Below, piece after piece: positions 13,901 through 28,100 of a stretch of 40,911 nucleotides of DNA. The notes beneath the pieces were generated by a model. The model saw only the letters and a list, made by a program, of their open reading frames with translations, was not told the origin of the DNA and did no database searches. Numbering within the stretch: the stretch's first letter is position 1; every line of letters starts with the position of its first letter. A program made the position numbers and the translations under genes. The stretch is from Armatimonadota bacterium. Lineage in GTDB: Bacteria; Armatimonadota; Hebobacteria; CAIYQO01. The stretch covers positions 1 to 40,911 of the forward strand of contig JBBRXO010000011.1 of the NCBI GenBank assembly GCA_038248345.1, read 5' to 3'.

Positions 13901-14278
13901 ATCGTTCTTGTATTCTTTCAGCCGTTTAGCATATTCGTTGTGAATTTTCTCCAGCAACGTTGCCTTGGCGGCTTTATCCAACATATCATGCTGTTGATAG
14001 GCGATGGCGAGGAAAATCGAGTCACGCTCCAACGGGATAACGCTGACACTCATCTGGGATTGCAGGTCAACGGACAATTCATTCAGGATATCACGCCCCA
14101 TCGAATCCGGAGGATTGGGTGCTGTTACCTGGAATGGCAGAATAAATACCTTTTTACCCCAGCTATCATCCGCATTAGCGCGCTGAGTAAAAGGCGTGAG
14201 TAGCCCTGGCAGCATCATAATGACCATTACGAGCAAACTCAAACCACGGCCTAATCGTCCCCGTACAAACTTTTTCAT
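1910..14278 (-). CDS. Giant (4122 aa) surface protein: signal peptide, CsgG-like domain, hydrophobic helix, many FN3 and Big_1 (invasin-like Ig) domains
   Basis: SD AAGGAG. Signal peptide ends QRANA. KVFILPF...LAQLLKADSFIYGTVDTY is CsgG/TolB-N-like. Hydrophobic segment IWPILGGLALATIIYSA. FN3 motifs (APTGL..LTW..Y.I.R..GLT..T.YYY.IR) and Big_1 motifs (ITVTV..G..V...TTNASG.A.F). T/A/V/G-rich. Confidence 0.9.
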   Translation of the reverse strand: MKKFVRGRLGRGLSLLVMVIMMLPGLLTPFTQRANADDSWGKKVFILPFQVTAPNPPDSMGRDILNELSVDLQSQMSVSVIPLERDSIFLAIAYQQHDMLDKAAKATLLEKIHNEYAKRLKEYKNDEDRALLMASYDVAADPNSEVTNRQAAIAYLAQLLKADSFIYGTVDTYEFSDADGAQAKIHLSATQVKFDSNYNALPAAPINVIGKSVVRPDGGGTREMHNAEAVRNIGERLALLLTGKAQPNGDEIGSGDGVIVTSAPAPKRGGSSMNKIWPILGGLALATIIYSATRGGGKSDTPPPLPGTGEGYAYPYPDGTIRLLFTLTPAQWAAAQTFEVYRANQGTRVRAVGVPDAGPLTKAQVNYNSATGVVTIIDRPAANGLFNYQVKMINTDRSYTMFSIFNGTTWNPTVAKNPLVGPYMPPAATGLQKTNEVGGIVDIAWTYPAGSQAGLINRIQILARTGSVWKEIAPLLPVASSATTARIALSGTTDIQVIPLGVGNYKSATLNPEILTITINPTSLTPASNVQAVLAPLPNWTKVNINVTWTPSPDPLVTGYRIYRNTTNTKAMGDAAMAQTGLHPSHGYYDFGTRTGGILVPNRAAAGVRQPAGSTLVQDNIAVTTSRFVDSDIHDGTKYIYTVEAIRTGTSLVADSIPSNDIWVDVPPANASAVTTTPSPGQVVVGWTAPTTNADGSPIPMVVGNGYNVYRLNAAPANPLGYTRAEMLAVAGKKINTNLIPFGTKTITDTTVVNRTNYFYTVEVIDGATPAQSSFGPYPYNSATPMPAVSQLAVTSPNLTLTAGATNVPITVTVSGSDGLGLANYQVSMSTPGVGLGSVSPALPATATTNASGNASFVYTAPMPIDVTTQKTVTLTATVIGALPALTKPITFTINPLAPVAVQLYADNNSVRALGLTALTARIVDVSGIAIPNQPVTIACTDQTCSYLDPVTSTYKLFTTPFTGVTSNAGELRLNIKAGPNTGTATFTATSGTLNSAIANIDILGIPSAVSINLPAQISAVTTGTVTVTDSNGVPVSGIVVHLSTNRGSITPSVFTNAQGQGNFTLTPGTTNTTATVTALLDGGITASTSVTFVTIENPLLVSGGTKIDAHNVHVIVGQATPFIWQLYGGDGLPLASKSVVVKVTNGTIGTGGGNVQSFATNTTSDGQVTFTYNSPITNGSTVLSFTDAANKKIGSDILLKAVLAAPTGLALVSMSDKEIDLTWQNSVGNYGYDIQRAQENNNPLTPLAWTTIYTTTQNITTYNDTHVPQSGTTYFYRLRALAPAGQVDFNSDFTAALQASTFPKKPLLHVPGINDITNGSVKLTWDGTADNFGIYSSPDNLLWSLVQTAPGNNDIAVLNTSIVSVAPSSKQYFRIIANSGGVPSVPSAPVYVIALPPAPTGLALNVISSSQIDLVWNAVAGASSYSISRKTAAEINYTVIAPSLNSTTLSYSDTALLPGTTYFYKVGDSIGSSAPSYSNPVSAMTELQTPINVMIDVSTPITDSTVNISWTGVNGADGYQIYTSPTGLSTSTWTINTIITHVGLPTATQKGQLTGLLGSSTYFIMVVASSNATGNNSKGSWPVMAKTLPAAPSGLTVTATSDKALQLNVTVDPLVGFYEIERSNTFNFTTVDRAWSAVGTEFPYSDTGLTAAHTYYYHIRSVTGGITSSWSVAKSGTTQPSAPVLLSAVPTDVTVALSWTGNGDSYNVESSPTGTTWTLLSTVPAVAGPAQSAIVAAVASTTTFYRIVATAGGVVSAPSNSLGVTTLPVAPAGLTVIPVSAVTLRLGITVDPTVTLYEVERSKSLATAANGIYSDPDGSMIALSGSQFPYNDTGLTAATVYYYHIRSTKAGVKSAWSNSVSSTTGLVTPIGVTVRVIASTDTTLELNWTGVTGADYYTVSRTGLGNPVTVPHVGAAGATQVYTFTGLTAATNYDFTVIANSTAGSNSAASLPATGNTLPAAPVGMNVTAINASTLKLAVTVDPLVTLYEVERSLSFATKADGSFTTRTGAMLNLIGTQFPYSDTGLTAVTLYYYHIRGSKAGVKSAWSPLVSGTTNLATPTGIAVNTGASTDTTLNITWTGVTGADYYTVTRTGLATPVIVPHVGVANALQSFTFTGLTAASSYDFTIVANNSGGLTSAASLPVTGITLPGALTGLTVTSVDAVTLKLGMTIDPTVSLYEIERSKSLTTNADGTFASQDGLTLNLTGGQFPYTNTGLSAATIYYYHVRGSKAGVKTAWSTIATGITLPAAPVLASATPSDISVTLTWTGLGDFYNVESSPNGTTWTPIATTPAGAGPNQTATVASVPDTTTFYRIIASANSVLSAPSNVLAAKTLPAAPAGLTVTSLNASSIKLGVTVDATVTLYEVERSLSIDTISNGSFTTPVGTKLNLIGSQFPYSDTGLTAATLYYYHIRGTKAGVKSAWSPLVSGITGLTTPTGVTVKTIASTDTNLDLNWTGVTGADYYTVTRSNPAITVTVPHVGAPGATQVFSFTGLTAATSYDFTVVANSNDGAVSAASLPVTGKTMPAAPAGLTVTPINASTIKLGVTVDATLTLYEVERSKSPATKADGTFTSIDGTLLSLIGSQFPYSDTGLTAATLYYYHIRGTKAGVKSAWSPLVSATTDLTTPTGVTVNTIASTDTTLDLSWTGVTGADYYTVTRTGLATLVTVPHVGAPGATQVFTFTGLAAATSYDFTVAANSISGAVSTASTPVTGMTLPIAPAGLTVTPTNATTLRIGVTPDATVTLYEVERSTSLATNPNGTFASPVGTMTNLLGSQFPYFDTGLTAATLYYYHIRGTKAGVKSAWSPLVTGATLPTAPVLTSVVPTDVTVTLSWTGVGEFYTVERSTDGAAWTKLPQIVSAIAGPTQTTIDSPVSPSTAYLYRVTASANGVISAPSNVLGTTTKPPTPTGLTITTGIDDKSLIVNITAVPGATSYDLVRSLVVDTNPDGSFTTPDGASILLAPGDLPYTNIGLTGGTDYFYTVRSYVGAAVSGWCLVKSGQTRPSTPKNLAVTAAAITATTIQLTWTGVLGAANYTLTNGNTPMTVPHVGAATDIQTYKVTGLASSTSFDFTVAAKSLMGVSSAASAPVTGKTLAASTIPVVARVTVTAQALLGAERIYYSQGPADQISQSVRTYTDLTITGLDGLDAGAKAASGAVVTFSIGSGPGEIEIVSSNQTKIGNVITGTLNNSGQMIVRFHGRTTNSAVPYTPVINELGLPVFAAESLGVTLPVPLQTQATPVALVGPPSNAVLTPVNPSSSNVFEDPTGGITTMNSDENVNVTATVYDEIGQRVLIGFPMHFKDSSSHISPFTNPDDTIGDGLVRREYVETDANGQAVAVFASNYSGLYTIHAWAVTTDHTSQLTGFTATGTALVRNRTYLSFNKPDGTPISPSQMILDYGTPKTLLSDGTDSALITITGRDDKGKLVLQGVAFRVKTSIGKIQLLQGYEFSAGVSGPFPSPPYLAFNNNGIAQFYMRSDKLNPTVGLAYLTFDNLRVTGQYLALPIETIKYTGQDITDATKFPFTANASAYSILRAPEPSGVDAVTNTILTVNLEDILHHALPAGYEGRLLVDGVPETGDPYIWSGATRMWERDGNSYGWSTNSPFVYYGYIQGTYNLAIEIKDLAGSTTRTTNVIPVRVVRGHTAVITPSTSTNVPVAGTYPITGIVYDDTGARLIDNAKVDFYVVVKAGTYDAAKLYLGSDLTKTIGNQRGNVSISFTPDLTNYASVQVTAFVDRNGNSMIDAGESLGSSGNFSMIIAPLNLRYDDTNKPLSDVRVPLTWDVVAGANRYDIYREGVKIGSSNAPATTFVDNTVPLQATKYNYAVQAINTNVTYGATSALSGGVDIYTAPTKVTIGSIDTITDTTASIHLTTEATDLTATKYRVYDNLSTMVKEVPIVLGQLQIDVTGLSPGVMHNLTVRVVDTTLTPQQESLDSNSKPCLTFPSKVALATTAADTNNTTDVTLHWKRSPVTETSVTGYRIYGGPAPISVPGGSAIQDYKVTGLAAGTAYTFNIKAVSAGGESLVNSDDIKTTTKPGAVTQIGSTVSATVITFNWVALVGNPAVTGYNVYNNGTKIGTVAAGVTLPVTGTYTAGTTYNLTVRAVAGALESADSNIILVSF
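4990..10665 (-). repeat. Array of 20 FN3 domains with a 1704-bp higher-order repeat
   Basis: The conserved Trp near the end of the A-type domains (mostly SAWS) recurs at ~9265, 8707, 8134, 7561, 7003, 6430, 5857, 5290 (spacings 558,573,573,558,573,573,567). Near-identical 109-bp blocks lie at 5847-5955, 6420-6528 and 6993-7101. Confidence 0.9.
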
Positions 14279-14362: not shown

Positions 14363-17300
14363 TTAGTTTGTCCGCATCGGTATACTATGCAGACGTTGCA
14401 GATCGGCGGTCTCAGCGAGAACGTCGATCAAATACTCACCAGCACGGATACTATTGCCATGCATATCTTTGCCATCCCAATTGATGGTAATTGCTTTGCT
14501 ATCTGCGGCATCCGCGCTCAACTGACGGACTACCTTACCTGCGATTGTCTTAATTGTTACCGTTACGGTTGCCGGAATTGACACCGCACAAGTGATGGTA
14601 GCGCCCGCACGTTTATTATTAACGGTAGCGGTGTTCTGCGTGAACTGCAAGCGCGGTATTGTGCCACCGGCGGTGATAACGAACTGCCGTATGCCGCCGT
14701 TGCCGCTGTCAAATGTATAACTGGAAGCGGTACGCATATAGGTGCGCTTGCCGGTGCTGACATCGGTAATCATCAGGCTGGCGCCAGCAGGGAACTGCGT
14801 CATATCGGGCCAACTCACCTGTACTGGTACGTTGGTCTGACTGCAATACACATTGTACGTCCAACTATTGATGGGACTCGGCGTGCGCATATCAGTACCC
14901 AGGCGATTATCGGCGCGCGTACTAGTGGAGCCGACGAAGTAACTGGAGAGCCCGGTGGGGCTGACCGGTGGCTTCATCGCATTCAGGATTTCACGGGTGG
15001 TGACATTTCGGCTGGTTACGCCGAAGGTTGAACTATCCTGGGCACCCGGGATAATAGCCTTCATATTTATCTTCCACTCATTAGCGCTGCCGCGAATTCG
15101 CGTGGACGCTGGCATACTACGGTAGGCCAGCGGTACAAATTGATTAGGTACGAATACCAGCGTCGCTGCCTGATTAGCGTAGAGCCAATATCCCTGGTAG
15201 GGCTGCAACGGGACGCGGATTCCCTGCTCGGCTGTTATGGTACCAGCGGCAGGATTTTCCCATGGCCAAAGATTTGCGGCGTTCTGGTAACCGGGGTTGG
15301 TAGGATTAGTAGAATCCCACGACCAGATATTACCGGAAATAACGCCGTTTGCGATTGCCTCTTCAACTGTATAGGATACGTCGGCACCGTCGACCACCAC
15401 TTTGCATTTGCCCCATTCAATTCCGTAGAGGAAGGGGTTGCCGATCAAGTTCCATCCCTGACGGATCGATATCGGGTAGGTCAACGTCTGGTCAAGCTTG
15501 GTGGCATCTCGCAAGGTGACCGATGTTGTGGAATCAAATTTTTGCCAGTAGCCTTCCCCGGCATTTAAGGTAACATCTCCATTAACAGCGAGGCGGTACG
15601 GGTTACCTGATGTAATAGTGGGGTCAAATTGCGCTAAGTTGACATTCGGCCCCAGCCCCAATGCCACTCGCGGATCCGCGTTAGCGAAGGTATAGGGGAA
15701 GCTGGACAAGTAAATGCCACGGCTATAATTGGAGGTTTCGATGGCCGGCACATTCACAAAGAATGTGCTGGTGATTGATCCACCTGGCGTAAAGTTAGCA
15801 GTAACCGTGACGGGGATCAAACCGCTTGCATCGCCAGTCGGTACCAGCTTCCAACTCACCATCTCATTCGCGTTGAGTTGTAATAAGCGATCTTGCATCT
15901 CGGGTACTTGCACGCTATAACTGAGGTTCTCGTTGTCATCCACTCGTAAGCCCTTTGATGGAGTAATAGTAGCATTAACGCGAACTAAGCCAGCTCCATT
16001 CTGCGAGTTGGTAAGATAAACACGGAGATTTGCCTTGGCCGGGCTATAGACGCCATTAACGGCCTTGAGCGATTCGTCACCGGCGATGGCAACGGCATAA
16101 TGATCTTTATATGCAACACGCGCCCAATTGAGGCTGAAGTCGCCATCAATTACCCATTGTGCGCCCGGTGCCAGGGTGGTGAAATTACCATTGCCGTTAT
16201 TGTAATAGTTGCCCACGGCGAAGCTCGGAGTGCCGGTGCTATCCAGCAGTGCGGTACCGGACTCGACGATGGGGAAGGTTCCCGGATTCAGCGCATTTAC
16301 CCAATTATAACGCTGTAGCGAATCCAACGGCGCAAACACCAAGCGGGTGGGAACGGTGCGGGGGGCATCGTTAGTGCCCACCGTCAAACGTTGCACGGTT
16401 GACATCAGTGGTTTGTTATCGATCTCCGCGGGGTTAACATTATCCGGAGTATAACGGATATCCCACTCATCAGGGACATCGGTTCCGCTGAAGTCGCGAA
16501 CATCGTTGAAAGCTCTCTTTGTGGGGATGATATAGGTAGCATTGGCCACATTTTTCCCGAGGAACTTAACGTTATTCACGGTGCGGAAGCCCACAAACCG
16601 GGAGGAGGGCGATTTATTGATAATGGTGTAGCTATAGTGCACCACATCGCGGATGAGGGACAGATGGATTTTCACATCAAAGCTATTGGTTGCATCGCCA
16701 GTATTCCACGTCATATCGGCCGTCTGTTTAGTTACATCCGGAGGCAATTGCGAGGAGGTGACTCCGCCCAGGCCTACCTGGAATTCACCTGTCGACCCCG
16801 GCACATAAAGATAGGCGAGGAATTTATTAATAATGGTGGCATGATCATCCTGTGAGTATTTTGGATCGCCGCCGGTAGTGCCGAAACACCAGGAACCGGT
16901 GGAGTCGACGGCAGTGCCGGTGGTGTCGGTACCAGAATGCCCGATACCAAGTCGTGCCACTGAGTTAGTCAGCATCCAGTAGGCATCCGGGGCTTCATCC
17001 AAGCCAGGGATATTGGCGATCCCACCGGTAGAGGTGACTTTAACCGTAGCAGTGGATGTGCCTGCCGGCGATGTTGCGGTGATGGTGAAGGTACCGCTGA
17101 CATTACCTGCTGTGAAGATACCACCACCATTAATAGAACCACCGCCGCTGACTGTCCAGGTGACATTGGCAGAAGGTGTGGCAGTGAATGCCTGCGACAT
17201 CCCATAAGCCACCGTTGCGGTGGCGGGAGATATCATCAATCCGCCCGTGGGGGTGATGATCACCACTGCCTGGGCGGTGCCATTACCATTCGTAAGTGTA

Positions 17301-19636
17301 ACCGTTACATAATATACACCCGGAGTGGTGCCGGCGGTGTATAAGCCCACGTTGTCCACGGTACCACCGGCGTCGGCGGTCCAGGTGACACCCGTATTTG
17401 GGGTAGAACTGAACTGCACGGTTGTGCCGACATTAACCGAGGTGAGGCCCGGACTGATGGTCAACCCATTGCCATTCTGCACCACACGGACGGTAGCATT
17501 GGCGGTTTTCGTACCGGAAGTAACTGTTACCGTGTAAGTGCCTATGGTAGTACCGGCAGTGAAATTACCCGAGGCACTGATGTTGTTACCGGTGCCGGTA
17601 GTGGTCCAGGCGACCGCACCTTTAATATTCGTCGTAAATTGCTGGGTACCGCCCGCTTGCAGGGTTACCTGTAAGGGTCCGATGAGCATCTGCAGTACTG
17701 TGACATTGATTGTCACGCTGCCTGCCGGTGAGGACGCGGTGATAGTATAATCGCCCGGGGTATTACCAGCGGTGTACCTGCCGTTTGTATCTACATTACC
17801 CGTTGGATCGGTAGTACTCCAGGTAACCCCGGTATTGGGAGTTGGGGTAAACTGCTGCACATCGCCCATGGCGATGGTTAGTACGGTAGGCGTTACCGAA
17901 AGTTGCTGGATCGTTACCGTTGCATTGGCTGTGCCCGCCGCACTGGTCGCAGATATCTGTATCGAGCCAGTGGCGTCAACATTTACGGTGAGTAAACCAG
18001 TTGAAGATATTGTACCAGGCCCGGACGCCACGCGCCAGGTTACGTTATCTGGTGGGTTGGCGGTGAACTGTTGTGTCGCGCCAGGAGCCAGTGTGGAAGA
18101 TTGCGGATTGATCGTCAATTTTGTCACATTGACGGTGACCGTAACAATATCCGTGCCACGTGTGGCTTTGACGGTGAAGGAACCAGCGGTATTGCCAGCG
18201 GTGAAGATACCCGCTTGGGTTATCGTACCACCGCCATTGAGCAATGACCAAACGACGCCATCGGAAGGATCAGCGGTGAAGGATACCTGTCCACCGGATG
18301 CCACCGAAGGGTTGGTCGGATTTACTGCGAAGGGTACGATAGTTACCGTAGCAGTGGCCGATCCTGCGTTAGAAGTTGCTGTAACCTGCACTGGCCCTAA
18401 AATAGTTCCCGCCGTAAATACACCAGTGTTGAAGCCGATAGTACCCATATTCGCCGGGCTGACACTCCATACCACATTGGTACTAGGGATAGCGGTGAAG
18501 GTATAGGACTTACCAGCAACGATATTTAAAGTAGTCGGGGTAATCGTCATCCCACCTGTTTGACTCAATGTCACGGTGGCGGTGGCCGTCTGTACATTAT
18601 TTCGCGTCGCCTGAATCTGGATCGTGGTTACATTCATATTATTAGGCGCGGTGTAAACACCATTGGCGGCTATGGTACCCCCATTAGCAGTCTGCACTGT
18701 CCACGCAATAGTACCGTCCGCTGGAGTAGTAGCAAATTGATATGACTGCCCCGGACTCAAGGTGATATTACTTGGATTGATAGCAAAGGCCACTGAGCTC
18801 ACAGTAATAGTCGAAGTTGCCAGCGTGGCCCCGGAATTAACATCCTTGGCTAATACATGGTAAGTACCCGCGGTATTGGGCGATGAGTACTGCACACTAC
18901 TGGCATTATTCACGGTGTTGAGATTGGTATTGAATGTACCGCCATTTGCCTCGGTAATTGACCAGTTAACGTTTGTGACTGGCACCGTAGCGAGTGTGGT
19001 GCCGGCGGAATTAAGACCCAGCGTCAGCGTTGCCGGGTTGATGGAGACACTCCCAGTAACAGTAATCGTGGAAGTAGCTGTCGCGCCACCTGCTATCGTC
19101 GCTACCACATGGTAGGTACCGGCTGTGTTCGGTGCATTATATGTTACCGACGTTACACCTTGGCTATTACCGGTGAAGGTTCCACCATTCACCTCGGTTA
19201 TAGAGAAATTCGCATTAGTAGATGGCGTGGTAGCAATTTGTACGGTACCACCCATGGTGACGTTAGTAGACGCTGGGGTCAACGCCACCGGTGCGGCAGT
19301 AACGTTAATGACGATCGGAGCGAATATATCTGCTGCATTGGTTGTGTTTACAGCGGACACGGTATATGAACCGGCAACATTACCTGCGGTAAATGTTACT
19401 GTTTTACCCGTAGTAGAGCTAAGAATACCACCACCATGGTTCCACTGAACGTTATCATTAAGGCCCAGAGTCGTAGCTGTTAATGTTACTGTCCCGCCAG
19501 TCTGTACGGTAGTAGTACTGGCCTGAATCGTCCCCGCCCGTAACGGCGGCAGACTGAGCATCACGATAAGGGCTACTACAAACACCCCCACCGTCCATTT
19601 ACGCGATATATGCAATGACTTCTTGCTCATGCTCAC
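14363..19636 (-). CDS. Secreted protein (1757 aa): 11 Big_2-like Ig repeats, unique central region, shared C-terminal module with FlgD-Ig
   Basis: Signal peptide ending PLRA. Eleven ~72-aa repeats I.P...l..G..qqFta.P...V.W.....GtI...G.ftAg...Gt..vtAt. C-terminal GWNLIGNPF, QPYQGYW, WDGKDMHGNSIRAGEY. Confidence 0.9.
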   Translation of the reverse strand: MSMSKKSLHISRKWTVGVFVVALIVMLSLPPLRAGTIQASTTTVQTGGTVTLTATTLGLNDNVQWNHGGGILSSTTGKTVTFTAGNVAGSYTVSAVNTTNAADIFAPIVINVTAAPVALTPASTNVTMGGTVQIATTPSTNANFSITEVNGGTFTGNSQGVTSVTYNAPNTAGTYHVVATIAGGATATSTITVTGSVSINPATLTLGLNSAGTTLATVPVTNVNWSITEANGGTFNTNLNTVNNASSVQYSSPNTAGTYHVLAKDVNSGATLATSTITVSSVAFAINPSNITLSPGQSYQFATTPADGTIAWTVQTANGGTIAANGVYTAPNNMNVTTIQIQATRNNVQTATATVTLSQTGGMTITPTTLNIVAGKSYTFTAIPSTNVVWSVSPANMGTIGFNTGVFTAGTILGPVQVTATSNAGSATATVTIVPFAVNPTNPSVASGGQVSFTADPSDGVVWSLLNGGGTITQAGIFTAGNTAGSFTVKATRGTDIVTVTVNVTKLTINPQSSTLAPGATQQFTANPPDNVTWRVASGPGTISSTGLLTVNVDATGSIQISATSAAGTANATVTIQQLSVTPTVLTIAMGDVQQFTPTPNTGVTWSTTDPTGNVDTNGRYTAGNTPGDYTITASSPAGSVTINVTVLQMLIGPLQVTLQAGGTQQFTTNIKGAVAWTTTGTGNNISASGNFTAGTTIGTYTVTVTSGTKTANATVRVVQNGNGLTISPGLTSVNVGTTVQFSSTPNTGVTWTADAGGTVDNVGLYTAGTTPGVYYVTVTLTNGNGTAQAVVIITPTGGLMISPATATVAYGMSQAFTATPSANVTWTVSGGGSINGGGIFTAGNVSGTFTITATSPAGTSTATVKVTSTGGIANIPGLDEAPDAYWMLTNSVARLGIGHSGTDTTGTAVDSTGSWCFGTTGGDPKYSQDDHATIINKFLAYLYVPGSTGEFQVGLGGVTSSQLPPDVTKQTADMTWNTGDATNSFDVKIHLSLIRDVVHYSYTIINKSPSSRFVGFRTVNNVKFLGKNVANATYIIPTKRAFNDVRDFSGTDVPDEWDIRYTPDNVNPAEIDNKPLMSTVQRLTVGTNDAPRTVPTRLVFAPLDSLQRYNWVNALNPGTFPIVESGTALLDSTGTPSFAVGNYYNNGNGNFTTLAPGAQWVIDGDFSLNWARVAYKDHYAVAIAGDESLKAVNGVYSPAKANLRVYLTNSQNGAGLVRVNATITPSKGLRVDDNENLSYSVQVPEMQDRLLQLNANEMVSWKLVPTGDASGLIPVTVTANFTPGGSITSTFFVNVPAIETSNYSRGIYLSSFPYTFANADPRVALGLGPNVNLAQFDPTITSGNPYRLAVNGDVTLNAGEGYWQKFDSTTSVTLRDATKLDQTLTYPISIRQGWNLIGNPFLYGIEWGKCKVVVDGADVSYTVEEAIANGVISGNIWSWDSTNPTNPGYQNAANLWPWENPAAGTITAEQGIRVPLQPYQGYWLYANQAATLVFVPNQFVPLAYRSMPASTRIRGSANEWKINMKAIIPGAQDSSTFGVTSRNVTTREILNAMKPPVSPTGLSSYFVGSTSTRADNRLGTDMRTPSPINSWTYNVYCSQTNVPVQVSWPDMTQFPAGASLMITDVSTGKRTYMRTASSYTFDSGNGGIRQFVITAGGTIPRLQFTQNTATVNNKRAGATITCAVSIPATVTVTIKTIAGKVVRQLSADAADSKAITINWDGKDMHGNSIRAGEYLIDVLAETADLQRLHSIPMRTN

Positions 19637-19659: not shown

Positions 19660-22600
19660 TCAATTGGACAGGAACGCTGCACCTTTTGCTGTCTGCCCAT
19701 TTTCGGTCGATGCCGATAAATAACAAATGTACTGGCCATGTGCAACACGATGACCACGATTGTCTAGTCCGTCCCATTGAATGGTGAAATTCCCACCCGT
19801 TACTGCCTGCGCTGGCAGTCGGCGAATTAACGCACCGTTCATGGTTTTAATGTCTACGGTTATGTTGGATGTGTCGGAAATTGTACCACTTAATAATGCG
19901 CCGGTACCCATCTTCACCGCACTGGTAGCGGAGAAGAACAAAGCGCCAGGATTGCCGGGCACGGCGGTTATTTTGATCGTTCGTGCGGTTTCCGTCGCCC
20001 CTAATATCACCTGGTAGGAGGTGGTGCTGCGCATGTAGCGCTCTACCGTACCATCAGTCAATTTCAACAGGTACCCGGCGGGCACTGCAGTCAGGTCTTG
20101 CCAGTCAATGTCTATCTTGCTACCCGGTGTTCCATTAACTTGCAGCGTCCAGTTATAGGTGCTGCCGGGGGCCGGGGCTAGTAGATCGCGGTAAAGCGAA
20201 ATCCCACGTGTTTTCGCCGCCAGGCCAATGCCGGCAGGAGACGTGGGAGGCGCTAGCAGATCAAGTCTAGCATCTACGCCGGATGTGGCGCCGGGGGCAA
20301 CGCCCAATACGACACCTCCGCCACCCAACCCGGTGTTAGCAGTAGCATTAATGCCGAAGCTCCACTCGGTCGCGGAACCTCGCGTCCGTCTGCTTTCCGG
20401 TGCCAATTCTCGCGTGACCGGTTGCGGCTGGTAGGTAATATAGGCGCGGACAAATTGAGTACCGGCGCGCATATTTATCCAGTATCCCTGCCATGGCTGG
20501 AGATTACCATTCGGGTAGATCATCGCCGTATAGGCTTGTTTGTCGATATCCCAGCTATAGAGCACCGGGTCGACATACTTGAGCGTGACGGCATCTCCCA
20601 TTGAATAAGTCTTACCATTCACCATTACCTGCAAGCTGGAATAGGGGATGGCGAAACTATATGGGTTGCCGATCATATTGAAGCCCGTTACGACCGGCAG
20701 GTTATACCTGGTAAGGCTGGAGGTAGAATCGCCGGAAAGTCTTACCGGAACGCTGGCTGGCTGATTTGCCTGCGCGGAGTAAAGCTTGAACCAAAAGGCA
20801 CGTCCGGCTGGCATCACCTGTGTGGCGGTGTTTACATCGGTGGCGGCCCAGGCTGTGCTGTTAAAATCTGCGTTGGCCGGGACAAACTGATTATAGTATT
20901 CGTAGGCAAGGTTGAGGGGATTCCACCAGGCCAGCTTGATATTAGACGGCGAAATGGTGGGGAATACGGCATCAGCATTGCCCACGCCGATAGCTGGCAG
21001 TGAGAGCAGCATGAACTTATCAGCGTTAGTGACGGAGAGGACCTTCTCTTCCACGCGGAATTTGAGCACGGCATTAACCGCGGCACCGGTGATCTGATTT
21101 GTTGCATCGACAATCAGCTGGTGAGACATCCCCGGCACCAGCTCGCCAGGATATATCGTCAGGCTGCCATCGGTGGCATTGTAGATAACTGATGTACTCG
21201 CAACCGAAACACCATCAATGGTCACCTGCAATGAGGATGGGGTAAGCCCGACTGCGCTGGCGCGTAATACCGGTGAGCGGACATAAATGGTGGAATTCGC
21301 CGCCGGGTCGCGGAAATTAATCAACGAGGTTGCCGGATTGTAAGACGACAGGTCAGCAATTACGTCCAGCCCGGCATAGTGGATATTGCCGATGTCTATA
21401 TTGGATGGGCCACTAGAATAAGTTGCCGTTGAGGGAGTGGTATTAGCTCCCAGATGGGTAAAGTTAGTTGTGCCCGGCATGACAATCTTCTCTACTGGAT
21501 AGTATTGATACTTACTACCAGATGCATTGTAGGTCTTAATTGTCAATCCACCCGGAGTGAGGGGATAGATGCGCGGGTGAGTGGCGCTCAATTGCAAATC
21601 GTGAGCGCTGAAAGTCCCGATATTATCGTCCACATGATAGACAATCATACCCGATTCATCGATATATTGATCGTAGCCAATTTTTGACCGATTCTCCAAC
21701 AGGAAGTACTCTTTAGAGTTTTCATCCCCATTCGGGAACATACGATAAATCGCCGCTCCAGTTGCCGTCGCCTGTGGTGAGAGTTTCACTCCGACGAGGC
21801 GCTGGTCGGTTACATTAATGACATTCGCCCAGCCAGCGAGAATTTTATTCCATGCATCCGGATGCGAAGGCTTGCTGGAATATTGAATTTCACCGTCTGT
21901 GTGAGGAATGAGCCACGGATTACCTTCGTCATCGCCAACCCTGGGGAGCATCCAGCCGTCTGCCATCAGCGAATATTTGCCGAGACTAACACCACCTGTG
22001 TAGGTAGTGTCGTAGACATTCTGCATGCCCAGTGCGCCACCTATTGACCAGGCCCAACTCCCCAGTACATCCCACCAGTGCGGAATAAAGACATTGGCGG
22101 AGGCGAACTGCCCGGGATCCTTCTCAAATTTCAGGAAGTCAACCTGCGGGGTTGTCCCATCAAAGACACCCGGATTGGCTGCTTTGATAAAGGAATCGCT
22201 GCTCATGGTCTCGGGAACTTGCACCCAGCCAGCGATATAGGAACCATCCTGCATCGGCACCGCTTGCGCGTAAGGTACCTGAATGAACTGGGTAGTGAGA
22301 TCGCTCGACGTTGCATTCAAGCTGATCTCTAACGCAGACCCAGCGTGGATGATCATTACTACATCGTAATAGCTGTATTGAACACCAGGGGTCAGCTTGG
22401 CAATATCTGTAATCATGCGCGCTGCGCGTGTCCCATCGCCTAGTATAATGCTCTGATCGGCTGCGTAATTCGCAATGGAATCCGGCAACGAAATTTTTGT
22501 GGCCAGATCCGGTGAATTCTGATCAAAGTAACCCACTAGTTTAATGCGTTGGGCGGATACTTCACTATAATACTGTGACAGCGCCGTCAAGCGATCCTTG

Positions 22601-22926
22601 AGATAGCCTGGCTGGACGGCTGGTCCCCAGGTGCGGTACGGCATTTTACCGTTGCCCGAGGTGTTCGGATCGGTGTCGGAGAGGAACTCCACCGGAATGG
22701 CGAGTACCCGAATCGGCCCAGATGTTGTCACCTGGCGCCCGATGACATGTGGCGCCACGCGTGCGTTGCTACCAGCAGTGGCGGGCAACGTGAAACGCGA
22801 CGTCGCCGGCGCGGCCACGGGAGACCACGGGGCCATCGGCAAGGCGTGCGCGGGTAACCCGGACACCAGGAAAGTTGCCCCTACAAAGGCAAGGAGTATG
22901 GTTAACTGTGACGCGAATCTATTCAT
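19660..22926 (-). CDS. M6 (immune inhibitor A)-like metallopeptidase homologue lacking zinc ligands, with shared C-terminal module and FlgD-Ig
   Basis: M6 scaffold motifs IRVLAIPVEF, YYSEVS, IIHAG, YSLMADG (Met-turn), HPDAWNKILAGW, EYFLLENR..GYD, GMIVYHVDD. The HExxHxxGxxD position reads WSIGGALGMQN. C-terminal GFNMIGNPY, QPWQGYW, WDGLDNRG. Confidence 0.85.
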   Translation of the reverse strand: MNRFASQLTILLAFVGATFLVSGLPAHALPMAPWSPVAAPATSRFTLPATAGSNARVAPHVIGRQVTTSGPIRVLAIPVEFLSDTDPNTSGNGKMPYRTWGPAVQPGYLKDRLTALSQYYSEVSAQRIKLVGYFDQNSPDLATKISLPDSIANYAADQSIILGDGTRAARMITDIAKLTPGVQYSYYDVVMIIHAGSALEISLNATSSDLTTQFIQVPYAQAVPMQDGSYIAGWVQVPETMSSDSFIKAANPGVFDGTTPQVDFLKFEKDPGQFASANVFIPHWWDVLGSWAWSIGGALGMQNVYDTTYTGGVSLGKYSLMADGWMLPRVGDDEGNPWLIPHTDGEIQYSSKPSHPDAWNKILAGWANVINVTDQRLVGVKLSPQATATGAAIYRMFPNGDENSKEYFLLENRSKIGYDQYIDESGMIVYHVDDNIGTFSAHDLQLSATHPRIYPLTPGGLTIKTYNASGSKYQYYPVEKIVMPGTTNFTHLGANTTPSTATYSSGPSNIDIGNIHYAGLDVIADLSSYNPATSLINFRDPAANSTIYVRSPVLRASAVGLTPSSLQVTIDGVSVASTSVIYNATDGSLTIYPGELVPGMSHQLIVDATNQITGAAVNAVLKFRVEEKVLSVTNADKFMLLSLPAIGVGNADAVFPTISPSNIKLAWWNPLNLAYEYYNQFVPANADFNSTAWAATDVNTATQVMPAGRAFWFKLYSAQANQPASVPVRLSGDSTSSLTRYNLPVVTGFNMIGNPYSFAIPYSSLQVMVNGKTYSMGDAVTLKYVDPVLYSWDIDKQAYTAMIYPNGNLQPWQGYWINMRAGTQFVRAYITYQPQPVTRELAPESRRTRGSATEWSFGINATANTGLGGGGVVLGVAPGATSGVDARLDLLAPPTSPAGIGLAAKTRGISLYRDLLAPAPGSTYNWTLQVNGTPGSKIDIDWQDLTAVPAGYLLKLTDGTVERYMRSTTSYQVILGATETARTIKITAVPGNPGALFFSATSAVKMGTGALLSGTISDTSNITVDIKTMNGALIRRLPAQAVTGGNFTIQWDGLDNRGHRVAHGQYICYLSASTENGQTAKGAAFLSN

Positions 22927-23014
22927 CCCACATCCTCAATCGCAAACACCTGGCCGATTTCTCGGTCAGGGTTGGCGAAGGTATTACTAATAACTAACGA
23001 CATTCGCGATAAAA

Positions 23015-24985
23015 TCATTTGCTTCGTCGCAATAGAATATTATCGTTCCCTGCCTGCATGATGTATGAGCCGGATGACCCCTTGGGAATTGCCTGTCCAG
23101 CACTGAGCAAGCCCCCCGGGCTACGTATCTGCCGCGGTGTAGCGGAGAGCTGGTGCATATAGGGATCGCAATAAACGTATCCATTCCAATTGGGGTTGTT
23201 GATCGCCTTTGGTAAAGCGAAACCGTCCGCCCGTGACCCGTAGCGCCAGTACAAGTTGCCTGCGCTGGTACCGAAGAAACTGCTCAATTCGGCCTGCGTG
23301 ACAGTCGCTTGCACGTAGTTTGTAGAACGAATGCCGACAAGAGAAAGGATGGTGCTGTTATTGCTGAAGCTACTATCAGTGGATATTTGCAATTTATATG
23401 ATGTAGCCCCAGGAACAATATTGGTACGATAGACGCCATCCAGCGGAACCGAGCCATTGGAAGGTGACTGGAGCGTCGGCGGGGCCAACATGACGCAGCG
23501 TTGCGTGTAATCCGAGCTATTGCTCAGGACTAACTTATAGGTTGGCAGGCCTCCGGACGAAACCGGTATCGAGGTATCGATATTGTATGAGAGTGTGCGA
23601 ATGAAGTAACTGGCGGAATCACCTGGGTTCATCGGCACAAAGCGGGTAGTGACGGCAAAAGAAGAGTTCTGTATCGTCATCATGGGATCGCCGGCGCTGG
23701 TAATAGGATCCGTCAGATTGGTGCTGACCGGAATAACCGGGGCTGAACCAGTGACGGTATCTAACGATACGGTATAGGACGTTGAGCGCATCGGCTTGGT
23801 TGGATCTTCCGCTAATGGGCCACCACGATCTTCAAACCAGGAGATTCCCGGCTGCACCAGCGCAATAGGGGCGTTCGGGTTAGAATCGCGATAGAGCAGA
23901 TGAGCGATTACATTACTACTGGAAGTCGGGCAATTAATCCGTATTTCACCACTGGGCATCTTGGTCGCGTCAGCCACGGGGAAGGCGGTTACCTTGCCTG
24001 AATTCGCCGGGTTGTTCTGATTCAAACCCGAGCTAATCAGATAATAGAGACCTGCAGCACCCAGCACTGGAGGTAAATTCCTACTTAATAATTTCCCAAA
24101 GCCGGCGGCGCCACCACCCTTGCTTACTGGATGATCCAGCGAGAAGATGGGGATAGCTTTATCGCCAATCGCGATTCCATTGTTTCCGCCTTCTACCACA
24201 CGCGCGACAGAAGTGAAAGAATCCGCTGAGACAATCTCAATTGTTCCTGTTACCGTCTCGAAACGCAGGGTGGTAAGGCGCATACCTTCACGCATACCCG
24301 CAACCGAGCCGAGGTTGATAGTGACTGTGCCATTGGAGGGGCTGGCCAGGACATTGGCAACTTGGAAGCGCGTATTGATGATACTGTTGGAGATACTATA
24401 TGCTGTCAGGGACACCGCCTGGCTTACCATCTCGACATTACTGCCGTGATAGTCCTTCCGGGGCGCGCTCTTCTGCACAATACGTCCACCCGCTATCGGG
24501 TTTCGTAATATGCGGCTGATGAGTGAGTAACTCGTCGTCACCTCGGCATAGGTACCTTCGGCGCTCTCATTGATTGTTACTTTCTCAATGTTGCCATTGA
24601 CGCCGTAGTTAGCCTTGAGTTGCGCACATATCACCGATACCGCCGATATGGGAACTGGCGGGTTCAGCATCTGTGCCCCGACGTTCACCATCTCGGATTT
24701 CTTCACCACGTCGTACAGGCGCGTGGCGGTAAGCTCAAACATCAGCTTGTTTGAGAGTTCCTCACCGATCGCCCCAGTAGAGAATTTCGACGAGTTGCCG
24801 AAATCAACTACCACGAGGCGCGGCAGAGTATTCTCATCGCCAGCACCTAATTTCTCATAGGGAGAACCCCCTCCCTGCGCCTGCGCTGGTTGAGAAGTTA
24901 GCGGCATGAGAAATGATACCAGCAAAAATGCACCAATGATGCCGGCCATCGAACGCCCTAAGTGTCTACACATCCATTTATCCAT
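23015..24985 (-). CDS. CsgG-like/FlgT-like domain protein (~656 aa) with internal hydrophobic helix and beta-rich C-terminus
   Basis: Start reassigned to ATG 24985 (SD AAGGAG; MDKWMCRHLGRS...PAQA signal peptide). RLVVVDFGN...LMFELTATRLYDVVKKSEM is CsgG-like. VTINLGSVAGMREGMRL...GTIEIV...SVARVV...IAIGDKA is FlgT C-terminal-like. Hydrophobic segment LPPVLGAAGLYYLISSG. Confidence 0.8.
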   Translation of the reverse strand: MDKWMCRHLGRSMAGIIGAFLLVSFLMPLTSQPAQAQGGGSPYEKLGAGDENTLPRLVVVDFGNSSKFSTGAIGEELSNKLMFELTATRLYDVVKKSEMVNVGAQMLNPPVPISAVSVICAQLKANYGVNGNIEKVTINESAEGTYAEVTTSYSLISRILRNPIAGGRIVQKSAPRKDYHGSNVEMVSQAVSLTAYSISNSIINTRFQVANVLASPSNGTVTINLGSVAGMREGMRLTTLRFETVTGTIEIVSADSFTSVARVVEGGNNGIAIGDKAIPIFSLDHPVSKGGGAAGFGKLLSRNLPPVLGAAGLYYLISSGLNQNNPANSGKVTAFPVADATKMPSGEIRINCPTSSSNVIAHLLYRDSNPNAPIALVQPGISWFEDRGGPLAEDPTKPMRSTSYTVSLDTVTGSAPVIPVSTNLTDPITSAGDPMMTIQNSSFAVTTRFVPMNPGDSASYFIRTLSYNIDTSIPVSSGGLPTYKLVLSNSSDYTQRCVMLAPPTLQSPSNGSVPLDGVYRTNIVPGATSYKLQISTDSSFSNNSTILSLVGIRSTNYVQATVTQAELSSFFGTSAGNLYWRYGSRADGFALPKAINNPNWNGYVYCDPYMHQLSATPRQIRSPGGLLSAGQAIPKGSSGSYIMQAGNDNILLRRSK

Positions 24986-25099
24986 GGTAGCGATTGCTCC
25001 TTTTCTCTTCCCCTCGCGATACGACCACGGTGAGGACGTAGATCTGCAATTGTTCATAAAGAATTTCTTCCTATTCTCAACATACTGAAGGAACCTTAT

Positions 25100-25161: not shown

Positions 25162-28100
25162 TCATTTGAGCATAAAGGGGGTCGTCGTGCGAATCACACG
25201 CCCCATATTATCCGTCACTTTCACTTCACAGTTGTAAATACCACGTGGCATCAATCTGCCGTTATCATCCTTGCGATCCCAGATTACTGTGTTGACTCCA
25301 GCATTTGCTGGTACCCCGTTTAGCAGGACTTTACGGAATACCCCCTGGATTAAGGTGACGGTGACGTCAGCCGGTGCCGAGAGACTGTATTTCACTACCA
25401 CACCATTACGTACTAATGACGCCTGAACATTGGTGATAGAAATCCCCGCCGTTCGCGCGCCGACGGTTACCTCGAAGCTACGCACTTCGCCTACCTGCGC
25501 GGCGCGGAAGGAGTAGCCAGCGACGGTATTCATATACTGTTGCTGTCCGGTAACTGTGTCGCGCAGAATTGCCTGCATCCCGCCCGGGAGTTGAACTTGC
25601 AATTCTGGCCAATCAATAGTTATGTCACTGGCGGTGGTATTGGCGGTCACCGTGAACACCCACTTCTTCTCGCCGCCGCTGGCGCTGCGTATATCCGTGG
25701 CATACTGGCCGTTATTGATTCCCCAGTCCTGGTGCGGGAAGGCCAGCACGGCCGGAGCGGAGTCCGGGGCGGGCGGTAGCCGGAAGTCGGTAGTATTATC
25801 GAAACCATCGTGGCCAGCAGAGGATACGCCGAAGTAATGGCAGTTATCCTTCATTCCATTGGCATTTAGGTTCAGTTGGACACGCCACTCACCTGACTGC
25901 GCCACGGAGCGCCTCGTCACGGGATTGATGGTACGCACAGCCGAGCGATTAGAGATGTTCAATACGCACTGATTAGCGGCGAACACCCAGTAACCGGCAT
26001 ATGGCTGCATGATGGTGACTATCTGATAGCTGGAACCATTCCAGCCGTAGACCGCCCCACCGATTAACGCGGGTATAGTGGTCTGGGCGTTCTGGAAGGT
26101 AACTGTCCCGGCTGGTGAAGTTACGCTGCAATCGAAGAGATCAACCGCGAAGGGGAACGGATCCCCTACCAGGTTCCAGCCCGCTTGCAGCGGCAACGTG
26201 AACGGGGCGGTGGTATCCACCGGGGTGCCTTCAGTTTGTACTGTCAACGGGGCGTTCAGTTTCATCCAGTAGGCTTTTGCCGGCTGGAGTAAAAGCGTGC
26301 CCGGCCCGGTATACATCTGATATGTACTGCCGATGTTGTCGTAATTACCGGCAATTTTATTGTACAAGGTGGTGGTATCTGTACCGAGCAACTCGGGGAA
26401 ATCCTGCGTATAGGTACCCGGGAATGAGTAGAGCATGGTGCCAGGACGTAGGGTCAATAACGGATCCAGGCGATATACTTGCCCGGTAATTATCTGCCCC
26501 GGGGCGATAGCCAGTGACTGTATAATTGTCTTGCGCCCGGTGTAACTCAGGCGTATCTGATACGAGCCTGGCTGCAGGGTAAAGTCAATATTCGATAAAG
26601 TACCGCTGCCGCTGAAGGCGCTGGCGGTAGTTTTACTGGTGATCACATTGCCGGAGGCCAGAATTTCCACCGTTACCCCACCGAGTGCACTAGCGGAACT
26701 ACCATCGTATACCTTCAGGAATACTTGCCCGGCACCGGTACCACCATTGACGTTGGCCATGGTGATAGTGATGTTGGCTCCAGTGGCGGGGAGATAACTG
26801 ACTACCTGGGTAGCGCCAGCGAATCCGCTGGCGGTGGTAGTGACGGTATAATCGCCCACCGCCAGCCCGGCAAAGGTAAAGCTGCCGTTCAGGTCACTGG
26901 TGGTAGAGCTGATGAAGGCGCCATTCAATGTCAGCGCGACACCCGCGCCCACGATGCGGATGCCATCGCTGCCGACCACGGTGCCGGAGAGCTGATTGGC
27001 GACTACTACATTACTGCTGAACTGGAGATCAACACGTTTAACTTCGCCCGCGGATACCACCGGGTCAGGCGTGGCAGTTGCGGCAGGGCCGCCCAGTGAA
27101 TCCACCGCGCTAACCGCATATTGGCCGCTATCGAGGTTGGTCAGCTCGTAATGCCCAAGGGCATCGGTAATAACCGGCTTGGGGGTAGAACCGCCACCCA
27201 CCGGCACGGCCGTCACCATGGCATTGGCCACCGGAGCTGTGCCGCGCTTTACGTAGCCCCAGATGGTGCTGGTATTGATGTCGCGATAGATGAAGAAGCT
27301 GGTATCCACCGAGCTGGTAACTTTGCTCCCCACTACGGGGATGTTACTCTTCTCCAGGGTGCCGAAATAGCCCGTGGCAGTGACTTTGGCGCGGTAATGT
27401 GCGCCTGGACGCAGGCCATACACGCGGTAGGTGCCCGATGCATCAGTGCGCGCAGCCGCCACTACACGGACGATATCCGTGGCGGAGGTGGCACCGGGGG
27501 TTACTTGGCTGATTACTACCAGCGCATCTTCCACCGGCTTCAGACTATTCTCCTGAACTACCGTTCCCTTGATGGAGCCATCCATCAGCCAATCCAACGT
27601 GTCCCCTGCCGCTTGCGCTCGTACATGGCTAGAGATGTCTTCATAACCGAAAGACCAGAAGGCGGTGCGCCCGCCGCTACTAGTTAACTCGCGTGTGATG
27701 GCAACGATATCCGTCGCGGTGTTATCATTAGATGCGGCGATGGCCGCTACTGCCCCGCCTGTCGGGCTGATGACGTCCCACGTTCCCACCGGGTTCGTCA
27801 GATTACTGGTAACGTACTGGCTGGGATTCGAGTTGCGCGGCAACTTCGCCGTGCCGATGACCGGCCAGCGTTGCGCGGCGAGCGAATCGCCATACCAGCT
27901 ACTGGAAGGGAAGGCAGATTTTTGCAGCGCAAATGGCTGATAATTCAACGATATCGATGAATTACCTTTCAGATTCGTCATCGCCAGCGTCTGTGACACC
28001 AGCCGGGCACCGATGGTACTGGTGAGGAAACTGTTGGTTTTGGTACCTTCAGCGGTGAGGCTCTGTGCCAGATCTTTGCCGATAACAAAGAGACGACCGC

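Follow-up and report, generated by a model that had tools for sequence, protein, structure and literature searches.

An M6-fold protein with a replaced zinc motif, predicted to be inactive and maintained by selection, in a surface-protein gene cluster of an Armatimonadota bacterium

Here we describe P0001, a protein of 1088 amino acids (aa) encoded on contig JBBRXO010000011.1 of an Armatimonadota bacterium. All coordinates are positions in the window, i.e. the whole stretch of 40,911 nucleotides (nt) that was analysed, and the genome to which the window belongs is referred to as G000. P0001 has, as modelled, the fold of the M6 or immune-inhibitor-A (InhA)-like metallopeptidases, and it carries a degenerate sequence in place of the metzincin zinc motif HExxHxxGxxD. 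We suggest that it is a pseudo-peptidase that has been kept by selection, and that it may serve a set of large, predicted surface proteins encoded around it. The gene and the parts of its product are as follows.

19660..22926, minus strand: M6-like pseudo-peptidase gene (P0001), 1088 codons plus stop, from the list of open reading frames (ORFs) and the translation; full-length orthologues have 1030-1110 aa.
22933..22937, minus strand: Shine-Dalgarno-like GAGGA with the ATG 6 nt downstream, read from the sequence, function putative.
22843..22926, minus strand: predicted Sec signal peptide, aa 1-28 (MNRFASQLTILLAFVGATFLVSGLPAHA, then LP), recognised by eye; the predicted local distance difference test score (pLDDT) is low there.
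21517..22746, minus strand: M6/immune-inhibitor-A-like metzincin-fold domain, ~aa 61-470, from the AlphaFold2 model, Foldseek, VIA and TIGR03296 (below cut-off).
22513..22533, minus strand: clade-specific 7-aa insertion GYFDQNS, aa 132-138, within the M6-like domain, from the alignment.
22018..22050, minus strand: degenerate zinc motif W293-S-I-G-G-A-L-G-M-Q-N303 replacing HExxHxxGxxD, from the translation and alignments.
21961..21975, minus strand: retained Met-turn Y318-S-L-M-A322, codons read directly.
19663..20829, minus strand: shared C-terminal all-beta module, ~aa 700-1088, from the AlphaFold2 model and matches to neighbouring proteins.
19705..19878, minus strand: FlgD immunoglobulin (Ig)-like terminal beta-sandwich, aa 1017-1074 (Pfam PF13860, E 1e-9, 38.7 bits, cut-off 27; PDB entry 3c12, E 1.9e-4).

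The initial annotation had reported WSIGGALGMQN at 22018..22050, and this is what the codons spell: on the minus strand, and following a GCC, the interval reads TGG TCA ATA GGT GGC GCA CTG GGC ATG CAG AAT. In an alignment of 106 M6-like sequences, the four key columns of the motif are strongly conserved (96-99/106), with the first His in 98, the Glu in 96, the second His in 99 and the Asp in 99 of the 106 rows. At these columns P0001 has H->W, E->S, H->G and D->N, in agreement with the initial claim that all zinc ligands and the catalytic Glu had been replaced. In a fifth change, the near-invariant Pro before the Asp (97/106 rows) has become Gln. The glycines of the G-x-x-G pattern are kept, and M321 of P0001 lies in the Met-turn column, which is invariant in 106/106 sequences. 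In the metzincin HExxH motif, according to PMC12237041, both His residues bind zinc and the Glu is catalytic, and PMC3890501 gives His, His and Asp as the zinc ligands of HEXXHXXGXXD. Because these roles are established in metzincins, P0001, in which both zinc His, the catalytic Glu and the zinc Asp are replaced, is predicted to be inactive, i.e. to hold no catalytic zinc and to cleave no peptides.

We found no point in support of an assembly or sequencing artefact at the motif, and its probability is practically negligible. Compared with the codons of the orthologues, the motif requires at least 8 separate base substitutions and no indel. Dead motifs identical or similar to it also turn up in further assemblies from different sources (P0002, P0018/P0163 and locus L023), and in a second sample of the study a contig spanning 21531-22094 shows 0 differences from the window. 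(Contigs of runs X2-X4 found at 80% likeness belong to the window's own organism, and P0002 is not among them. Of the 4 runs found, none is listed as RNA, which speaks neither for nor against expression.) Because at least 8 substitutions, dead motifs in other assemblies and an identical second-sample contig coincide, the departures from the motif are real and sequencing error is excluded. Among the 106 aligned rows, 10 do not have at least one of the H/E/H/D residues (11 if a D->E is counted) and 3 of the 10 are the P0001 clade. Dead M6-like proteins thus recur, yet as a small minority.

Sequence profiles by themselves support the assignment of P0001 to M6 weakly. The NCBIfam model TIGR03296 gives 63.5 bits and E 2.8e-17, which is significant and sub-threshold (cut-off 110.8), and Pfam PF05547 (Peptidase_M6) gives 14 bits and E 0.03 with the N-terminal half (cut-off 22) and, in Pfam, no match with full-length P0001. 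It is the match of the modelled fold that settles the assignment. An AlphaFold2 model of aa 30-540, built from 106 homologues, has a mean pLDDT of 90.4 and a predicted template modelling (TM) score of 0.91. The best Foldseek matches in the PDB are four chains of Bacillus anthracis InhA2 (4YU5/4YU6; E 4.7e-12 to 1.8e-11, prob 1.00), with 4YU6_B at the top and the next match other than InhA2 at E 2.6e-3. VIA-align superimposes the model on 4YU5_A with Z 21.2 and a root-mean-square deviation of 3.6 A over 365 residues, and on 4YU6_B with Z 21.0; the next entry has Z 9.2 and is followed by ordinary metzincins (ADAM17, ulilysin, mirolysin, ADAMTS). Moreover, when a profile from the 106-sequence alignment was compared with the PDB, InhA2 was the sole distinct sequence matched (E 1.3e-57); the profile consensus HEfGHalGLPDLYdt aligns to HAFGHDLGLPDEYDT of the InhA2 chain, placing HEfGHalGLPD opposite HAFGHDLGLPD of the crystal chain. 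On these grounds the domain is, as modelled, of the M6 (InhA-like) fold, and the homology proposed in the initial annotation holds. The same is true of the scaffold that it had described as intact, because all of its motifs (IIHAG, YDT, YSLMADG, AWNKILAGW and EYFLLENR) were located in the 1088-aa translation, as IIHAG at 192-196, VYDTTY at 304-309, YSLMADGW at 318-325, DAWNKILAGW at 357-366 and EYFLLENR at 406-413. The remainder of the protein (aa 541-1088) was modelled as a string made up entirely of beta-sandwiches (pLDDT 90), for which Foldseek found in the PDB generic Ig/FN3 strings only (TM ~0.13).

Could such a protein still be an enzyme, with another metal site or other residues, e.g. 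S294, which the clade conserves, or the histidines H194 of IIHAG and H355 of SHPD? All three dead lineages have S294 despite differing codons (TCA vs TCC), and both H194 and H355 are invariant in A1, an alignment of eight orthologues. However, hardly any of the 106 M6-like proteins, whether active or not, departs from H194, and H355 is also found in the motif-bearing orthologues of A1; because the two histidines are equally conserved in motif-bearing members, they are features of the family rather than replacements acquired after the loss. Furthermore, all four residues required for metzincin catalysis, as given in PMC12237041 and PMC3890501, are gone, and the 14 clade-specific changes described below contain no new conserved His, Glu or Asp. 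We therefore regard a remaining enzymatic activity as very unlikely.

To place the loss in time, relatives of P0001 are needed, and few are close. Among 5.8 billion clustered proteins, 7987 candidates were scored and 16 matched at E <= 0.001, including P0002 (90% identity) and six full-length relatives at 35-42% identity. An exhaustive HMMER search gave 2034 matches at E <= 0.001, 16 of them at E <= 1e-30; among the HMMER matches is P0018, a 303-aa fragment with 65% identity, whose cluster contains the full-length P0163 of 1085 aa. A metagenome scan returned the ~70% relative only, in the form of locus L023, which represents the DNA of the P0163 lineage and comprises 588 codons that are 70% identical to P0001. 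The motif reads WSIGGALGMQN in P0001, WSIGGALGMQI in P0002 and YSMGQALGMQN in P0163/L023. HExxHxxGxxD is thus absent in 3/3 members of this clade, and it is present in 22/22 other full-length orthologues (P0004 and L007 being identical), including 8/8 loci with a full-length match in genomes of the same family. In quick trees under two models (LG+G4 and LG+C20+F+G4), P0001, P0002 and P0163 form a clade with a Shimodaira-Hasegawa-like approximate likelihood ratio support of 100, the active P0003 is its sister (100), and the clade is nested within the active orthologues. E->S, F->L, P->Q and D->N are common to the clade, with a later change of N to I at the Asp site in P0002. The codons at the two former His positions are TAT (Y) and CAG (Q) in L023, each one base step from His, and TGG (W) and GGC (G) in the window. 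Because substitutions are shared while the two ex-His sites differ (W/Y and G/Q), we infer that the motif was lost once, on the stem of the clade, and that the former ligand positions kept drifting thereafter. The loss is, in other words, old, and it has been passed on within a small clade that is surrounded in the trees by syntenic orthologues retaining the motif.

The clade is also marked by the insertion GYFDQNS, which is present in 3/3 sequences with a dead motif and in 0/21 active orthologues. As a separate observation, the Cys at aa 242 (22201-22203, minus strand; PETxC) is found in 21/21 active orthologues and in P0163, and is Ser in P0001 and P0002; a disulphide could have been lost with this change.

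A second lineage without the motif lies in another genome family, f6. The syntenic M6-like proteins L012-L014 (G031:C117, G059:C95 and G046:C149) read GAMITGQGFSEPT, GAQRTGATARGLPD and GAMRTGEGLGAAG in place of HExxH, and they retain a Met-turn-like WDLMDRGW; loci L029 and L030 belong with them. Their ratios of nonsynonymous to synonymous substitution rates (dN/dS, omega) are 0.32-0.44 and do not differ from those elsewhere in the protein. The orthologue L022 from family f12 retains HESGHAFGLLD. The trees need, under both models, two changes of state. Against the P0001 clade, the f6 proteins score 180-193 bits, 20 full-length active rows 170-292 and the active sister P0003 189-197. Because the two groups come from different genome families, occupy the same synteny, have unlike replacement residues and the f6 proteins score low against the P0001 clade, the f6 loss is probably a second and independent one. 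That the motif went missing again in this cluster, elsewhere in the phylum, suggests a role for the M6-like protein that does not depend on proteolysis.

The initial annotation had argued that the gene was retained, and neither decaying nor mis-sequenced. In P0001 and L023 both proteins are dead and the entire path between them postdates the loss. Over aa 61-470, this pair has dN 0.172 and dS 2.08, i.e. an omega of 0.083 (NG86) that is approximate because dS is saturated; over all 588 aligned codons omega is 0.126 (NG86) or 0.074 (YN00). Three active orthologue pairs have omega 0.106, 0.189 and 0.359 over the same span. P0001 and L023 agree in 74.8% of amino acids (305/408) and in 40.5% of the 4-fold sites within conserved codons (60/148), for which 27.6% would be expected by chance. 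The purifying selection shown by these estimates on the dead domain is as strong as that on active orthologues. A total of 107 columns are near-invariant, defined as identical in at least 20/21 active orthologues. All three dead sequences retain 93 of them, and among the 14 that have changed, 6 (293, 294, 297, 299, 303 and 305) lie in or adjoin the motif; 6/15 conserved columns have changed within aa 281-330 vs 8/92 elsewhere. The mean distance of the catalytic domain to 20 outgroup orthologues is 0.596 for the dead lineage and 0.559 for the active sister, and for other parts it is equal or lower. A comparison of the two dead lineages shows the lowest divergence in the M6-like domain (25%, with 27% and 30.5% for the other parts). 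These figures, which come from a clade sample of three sequences and two lineages with DNA, argue that the M6-like domain is constrained along nearly its whole sequence, the old metal site excepted. Taken together, omega, the kept columns, the outgroup distances and the low divergence indicate a domain that is still functional, and P0001 would thus be a selected pseudo-peptidase.

Selection on the domain is also what separates this conclusion from the alternative of a decaying relic, in which function was lost together with catalysis in a shrinking genome and the gene has not yet been disrupted. G000 measures 2.98 Mb at 95.7% completeness, ten genomes of the same family 4.1-6.1 Mb, and the same-genus genome G001 2.5 Mb at 77% completeness, which suggests that G000 belongs to a reduced-genome lineage. 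A relic would be consistent with a genome that is small for its family and with an orthologue that was not found in the 77%-complete genome of the same genus. Nevertheless, the ORFs are intact at 1085-1088 aa in lineages that differ by ~30% at the protein level and approach saturation at synonymous sites, the omega of the dead domain is not above that of active orthologues, and 93/107 conserved columns have been kept. A relic is therefore extremely unlikely, and the retention claimed at the outset stands, with the loss shared by three lineages down to ~70% identity.

Several findings nevertheless weigh against reading P0001 as a non-catalytic binding or scaffold protein. First, the saturation of dS leaves omega an approximate value. 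Second, 3/4 ex-catalytic positions vary among the three clade members vs 27.9% of columns overall (114/408), a difference that is not significant (binomial ~0.07). Third, the protein tree by itself does not prove the f6 loss to be independent, because one clade uniting the six dead sequences is compatible with the data in an approximately unbiased test (p 0.344). Fourth, the small size of G000 relative to genomes of its family could accompany general gene loss, and neither the orthologue nor the cluster was found in the one same-genus genome G001 (77% complete), in which P0001 has a sole match, by its C-terminal module and at a locus that is unrelated. As for the old active site itself, the data suggest that it has not been recruited for a new exact chemistry, and no function of a pseudo-active site is indicated. 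A drifting ex-catalytic site would fit binding through other surfaces, by analogy with ADAM22-LGI1 as presented in PMC11266112.

The neighbourhood of the gene points to where a function other than catalysis might lie. P0001 is the third of five large genes for predicted secreted proteins.

25162..30297, minus strand: first cluster gene, 1711 aa, with PD40 and CarboxypepD_reg domains and the shared C-terminal module, from profiles and synteny.
23015..25057, minus strand: upstream neighbour, up to 680 aa, with its likely start at M25 (window position 24985), from synteny and the orthologue alignment.
14363..19636, minus strand: downstream gene, 1757 aa, with Big_2-like repeats, the shared C-terminal module and FlgD_ig, from profiles and synteny.
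1910..14278, minus strand: last cluster gene, 4122 aa, with fn3, Big_1 and invasin-D3-like repeats, from profiles and synteny.

The genes follow the order S1 - CoaE - 1711 - 680 - M6-like - 1757-like - 4122-like, they are co-directional, and in the window the gaps measure 23-104 nt. The full order is present in 4/5 same-family loci fetched (G003, G011, G004 and G005), with the motif kept, and the fifth (G007, L026) has no match to the 1711-aa gene; HExxH is kept by the syntenic orthologues in all five of these same-family genomes, a comparison that the initial annotation had left to be made. L023 has 1711 - 680 - M6, and the cluster also lies beside S1 - CoaE in families f6 and f12, so that it is known from three families of the phylum. 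Across the loci, the gene after the M6-like one encodes a protein of 1757 aa or ~930 aa. Because gene order is conserved, the motif-bearing proteins can be taken as true syntenic orthologues of P0001. The 680-aa neighbour matched no Pfam or NCBIfam family and has a hydrophobic stretch in mid-protein; Atlas gives a weak LpoB/CsgG-like lead (14% and 10% of one cluster's members). Its start is probably at window position 24985, because conservation among the orthologues begins at M25.

Three of the cluster proteins have in common a C-terminal module of ~380 aa (19663-20829, 14366-15568 and 25165-26400, all on the minus strand). Matches to P0001, mostly to this module, were found in 42/61 searched genomes of the phylum (G000 included), at up to 9 per genome, many of them in large ORFs. 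The module may thus be a sorting or anchoring module. A type IX secretion system (T9SS) model for SprA had no match in G000, nor in the controls. The model of the T9SS sortase PorU was matched over positions 366-731, which may be the peptidase part of PorU, by a 628-aa ORF at G000:C25:1239-2213 (plus strand) with 89 bits (cut-off 420). Its product is thus a candidate for the enzyme that would process the C-terminal module shared by the cluster proteins.

Based on these data, we consider it reasonably likely that P0001 is a non-catalytic binding or scaffold component of a conserved surface-protein cluster and that it is exported and displayed at the surface, as predicted. In this model, the M6-fold protein would neither bind zinc nor cut peptides, since the zinc ligands and the catalytic Glu are gone. 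Export is suggested by the signal peptide that was recognised by eye, whereas display at the surface is suggested by the shared C-terminal beta-sandwich module. A role as a peptide-binding adhesin, decoy or scaffold subunit, as the initial annotation had proposed, is putative. The function retained would be protein binding or scaffolding within the set 1711 aa - 680 aa - M6-like - 1757 aa - 4122 aa, and it would predate the loss of catalysis, because a second syntenic lineage has also lost the motif.

A different use of the same scaffold is as a decoy, trap or regulator, in which the dead cleft still binds peptides or proteins and P0001 traps substrates, competes with or inhibits other proteases of the cell itself or of a neighbour, or acts as a sensor. 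The scaffold that forms the cleft, the Met-turn and most family-conserved residues are indeed kept, and pseudo-peptidases often regulate active relatives, as stated in PMC11266112. However, no other M6 match was found in the 95.7%-complete G000, in which all TIGR03296 matches lie within the P0001 ORF, and with no other M6 match in the genome a regulator of an active paralogue becomes unlikely. In addition, the ex-catalytic positions are still changing within the clade, and the synteny with giant surface proteins sharing the C-terminal module points to a role in that set. We regard a decoy, trap or regulator as unlikely, and favor a binding or scaffold component. A further-reaching version of the latter, which we put forward as a possible but doubtful extension, is that the M6-fold protein of this cluster is primarily a structural or ligand-binding subunit and that proteolysis was an expendable extra, discarded at least twice in separate lineages. 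If this were true, the protein would be the bacterial equivalent of pseudo-metzincin receptors of the ADAM22 type, and it would offer a natural experiment on the surfaces by which an M6 protease exerts a function that does not need catalysis.

Automatic annotation would name P0001 a metalloprotease, as public sources name its orthologues, for a protein that almost certainly cannot cut. The system also offers a clean case for the passage from enzyme to non-enzyme, because one bacterial family contains both forms, active and dead, as syntenic orthologues. The loss can be placed on one branch, a relative is known in which the former His residues are Y and Q at one base step from His, and the constraints on dead and live forms can be compared directly. 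A role beyond proteolysis would, moreover, bear on the function of an uncharacterised surface-protein cluster in Armatimonadota-like bacteria. P0001 does not open a new category, because dead metzincins, as well as inactivated M6-like proteins with a curated family of their own, are already known.

Among characterised proteins, the closest in fold is InhA2 of B. anthracis (MEROPS M6/thuringilysins; 4YU5 and 4YU6). The catalytic domain of InhA2 is folded like the domain of P0001, with the same Met-turn and the same position of the active-site helix, and InhA2 is a secreted multidomain protein, as P0001 is predicted to be. However, the two share 18-19% identity only, and P0001 is without HExxHxxGxxD and hence without predicted zinc or activity. 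Their alignment contains nothing before residue 39 of the model and starts at residue 160 of the InhA2 chain. The C-terminal half of P0001 is also unlike InhA2, being a string of beta-sandwiches with a FlgD_ig-like end. Much closer overall are the syntenic motif-bearing orthologues (e.g. P0003, P0019 and L004-L011), which have the length, architecture and neighborhood of P0001 at 31-42% full-length identity; one of them bears an NCBI name that assigns it to an Armatimonadota metagenome-assembled genome. Their motif still has its H, E, H, P and D residues, while the P0001 clade adds the 7-aa insertion at aa 132-138.

A degenerate motif is also known from the NCBIfam family NF052323 ('T9SS-dependent M6-like inactivated metalloprotease'), whose members are likewise large secreted M6-like proteins, of ~1040 aa (e.g. 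LMFGFQIGLPA in P0095). P0095 and P0124, both with a degenerate motif, score 610.8 and 681.9 with this model, above its cut-off of 600, while P0001 scores 56.6 and the active P0003 64.8. Because the active sister scores the same, the hit of P0001 appears to reflect the shared M6 fold only, and P0001 is by this measure not a member of NF052323. The T9SS type A sorting domain TIGR04183, present in P0095 and P0124, had no match in P0001 even at E up to 10. The loss in the P0001 clade is independent of, and much younger than, that of NF052323.

In animals, dead metzincins are textbook cases, represented by the ADAMs. Our literature searches on inactive or pseudoprotease M6 and metzincin homologues found no paper on dead bacterial M6 homologues. 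ADAM11, ADAM22 and ADAM23 have, like P0001, a degenerate HExxH and a kept Met-turn, and they work by protein binding, ADAM22 as the receptor of LGI1; the partner binds a domain surface and not the pseudo-active site (both as described in PMC11266112). ADAM22 structures are among the weaker fold matches of P0001 (VIA Z 8.0-8.3). The dead ADAMs differ from P0001 in that they belong to family M12, are eukaryotic and membrane-anchored, and carry disintegrin domains. Thus, the likeness would lie in the working mode only, i.e. in binding a partner with a fold that no longer cuts, which is how we suggest that P0001 may work.

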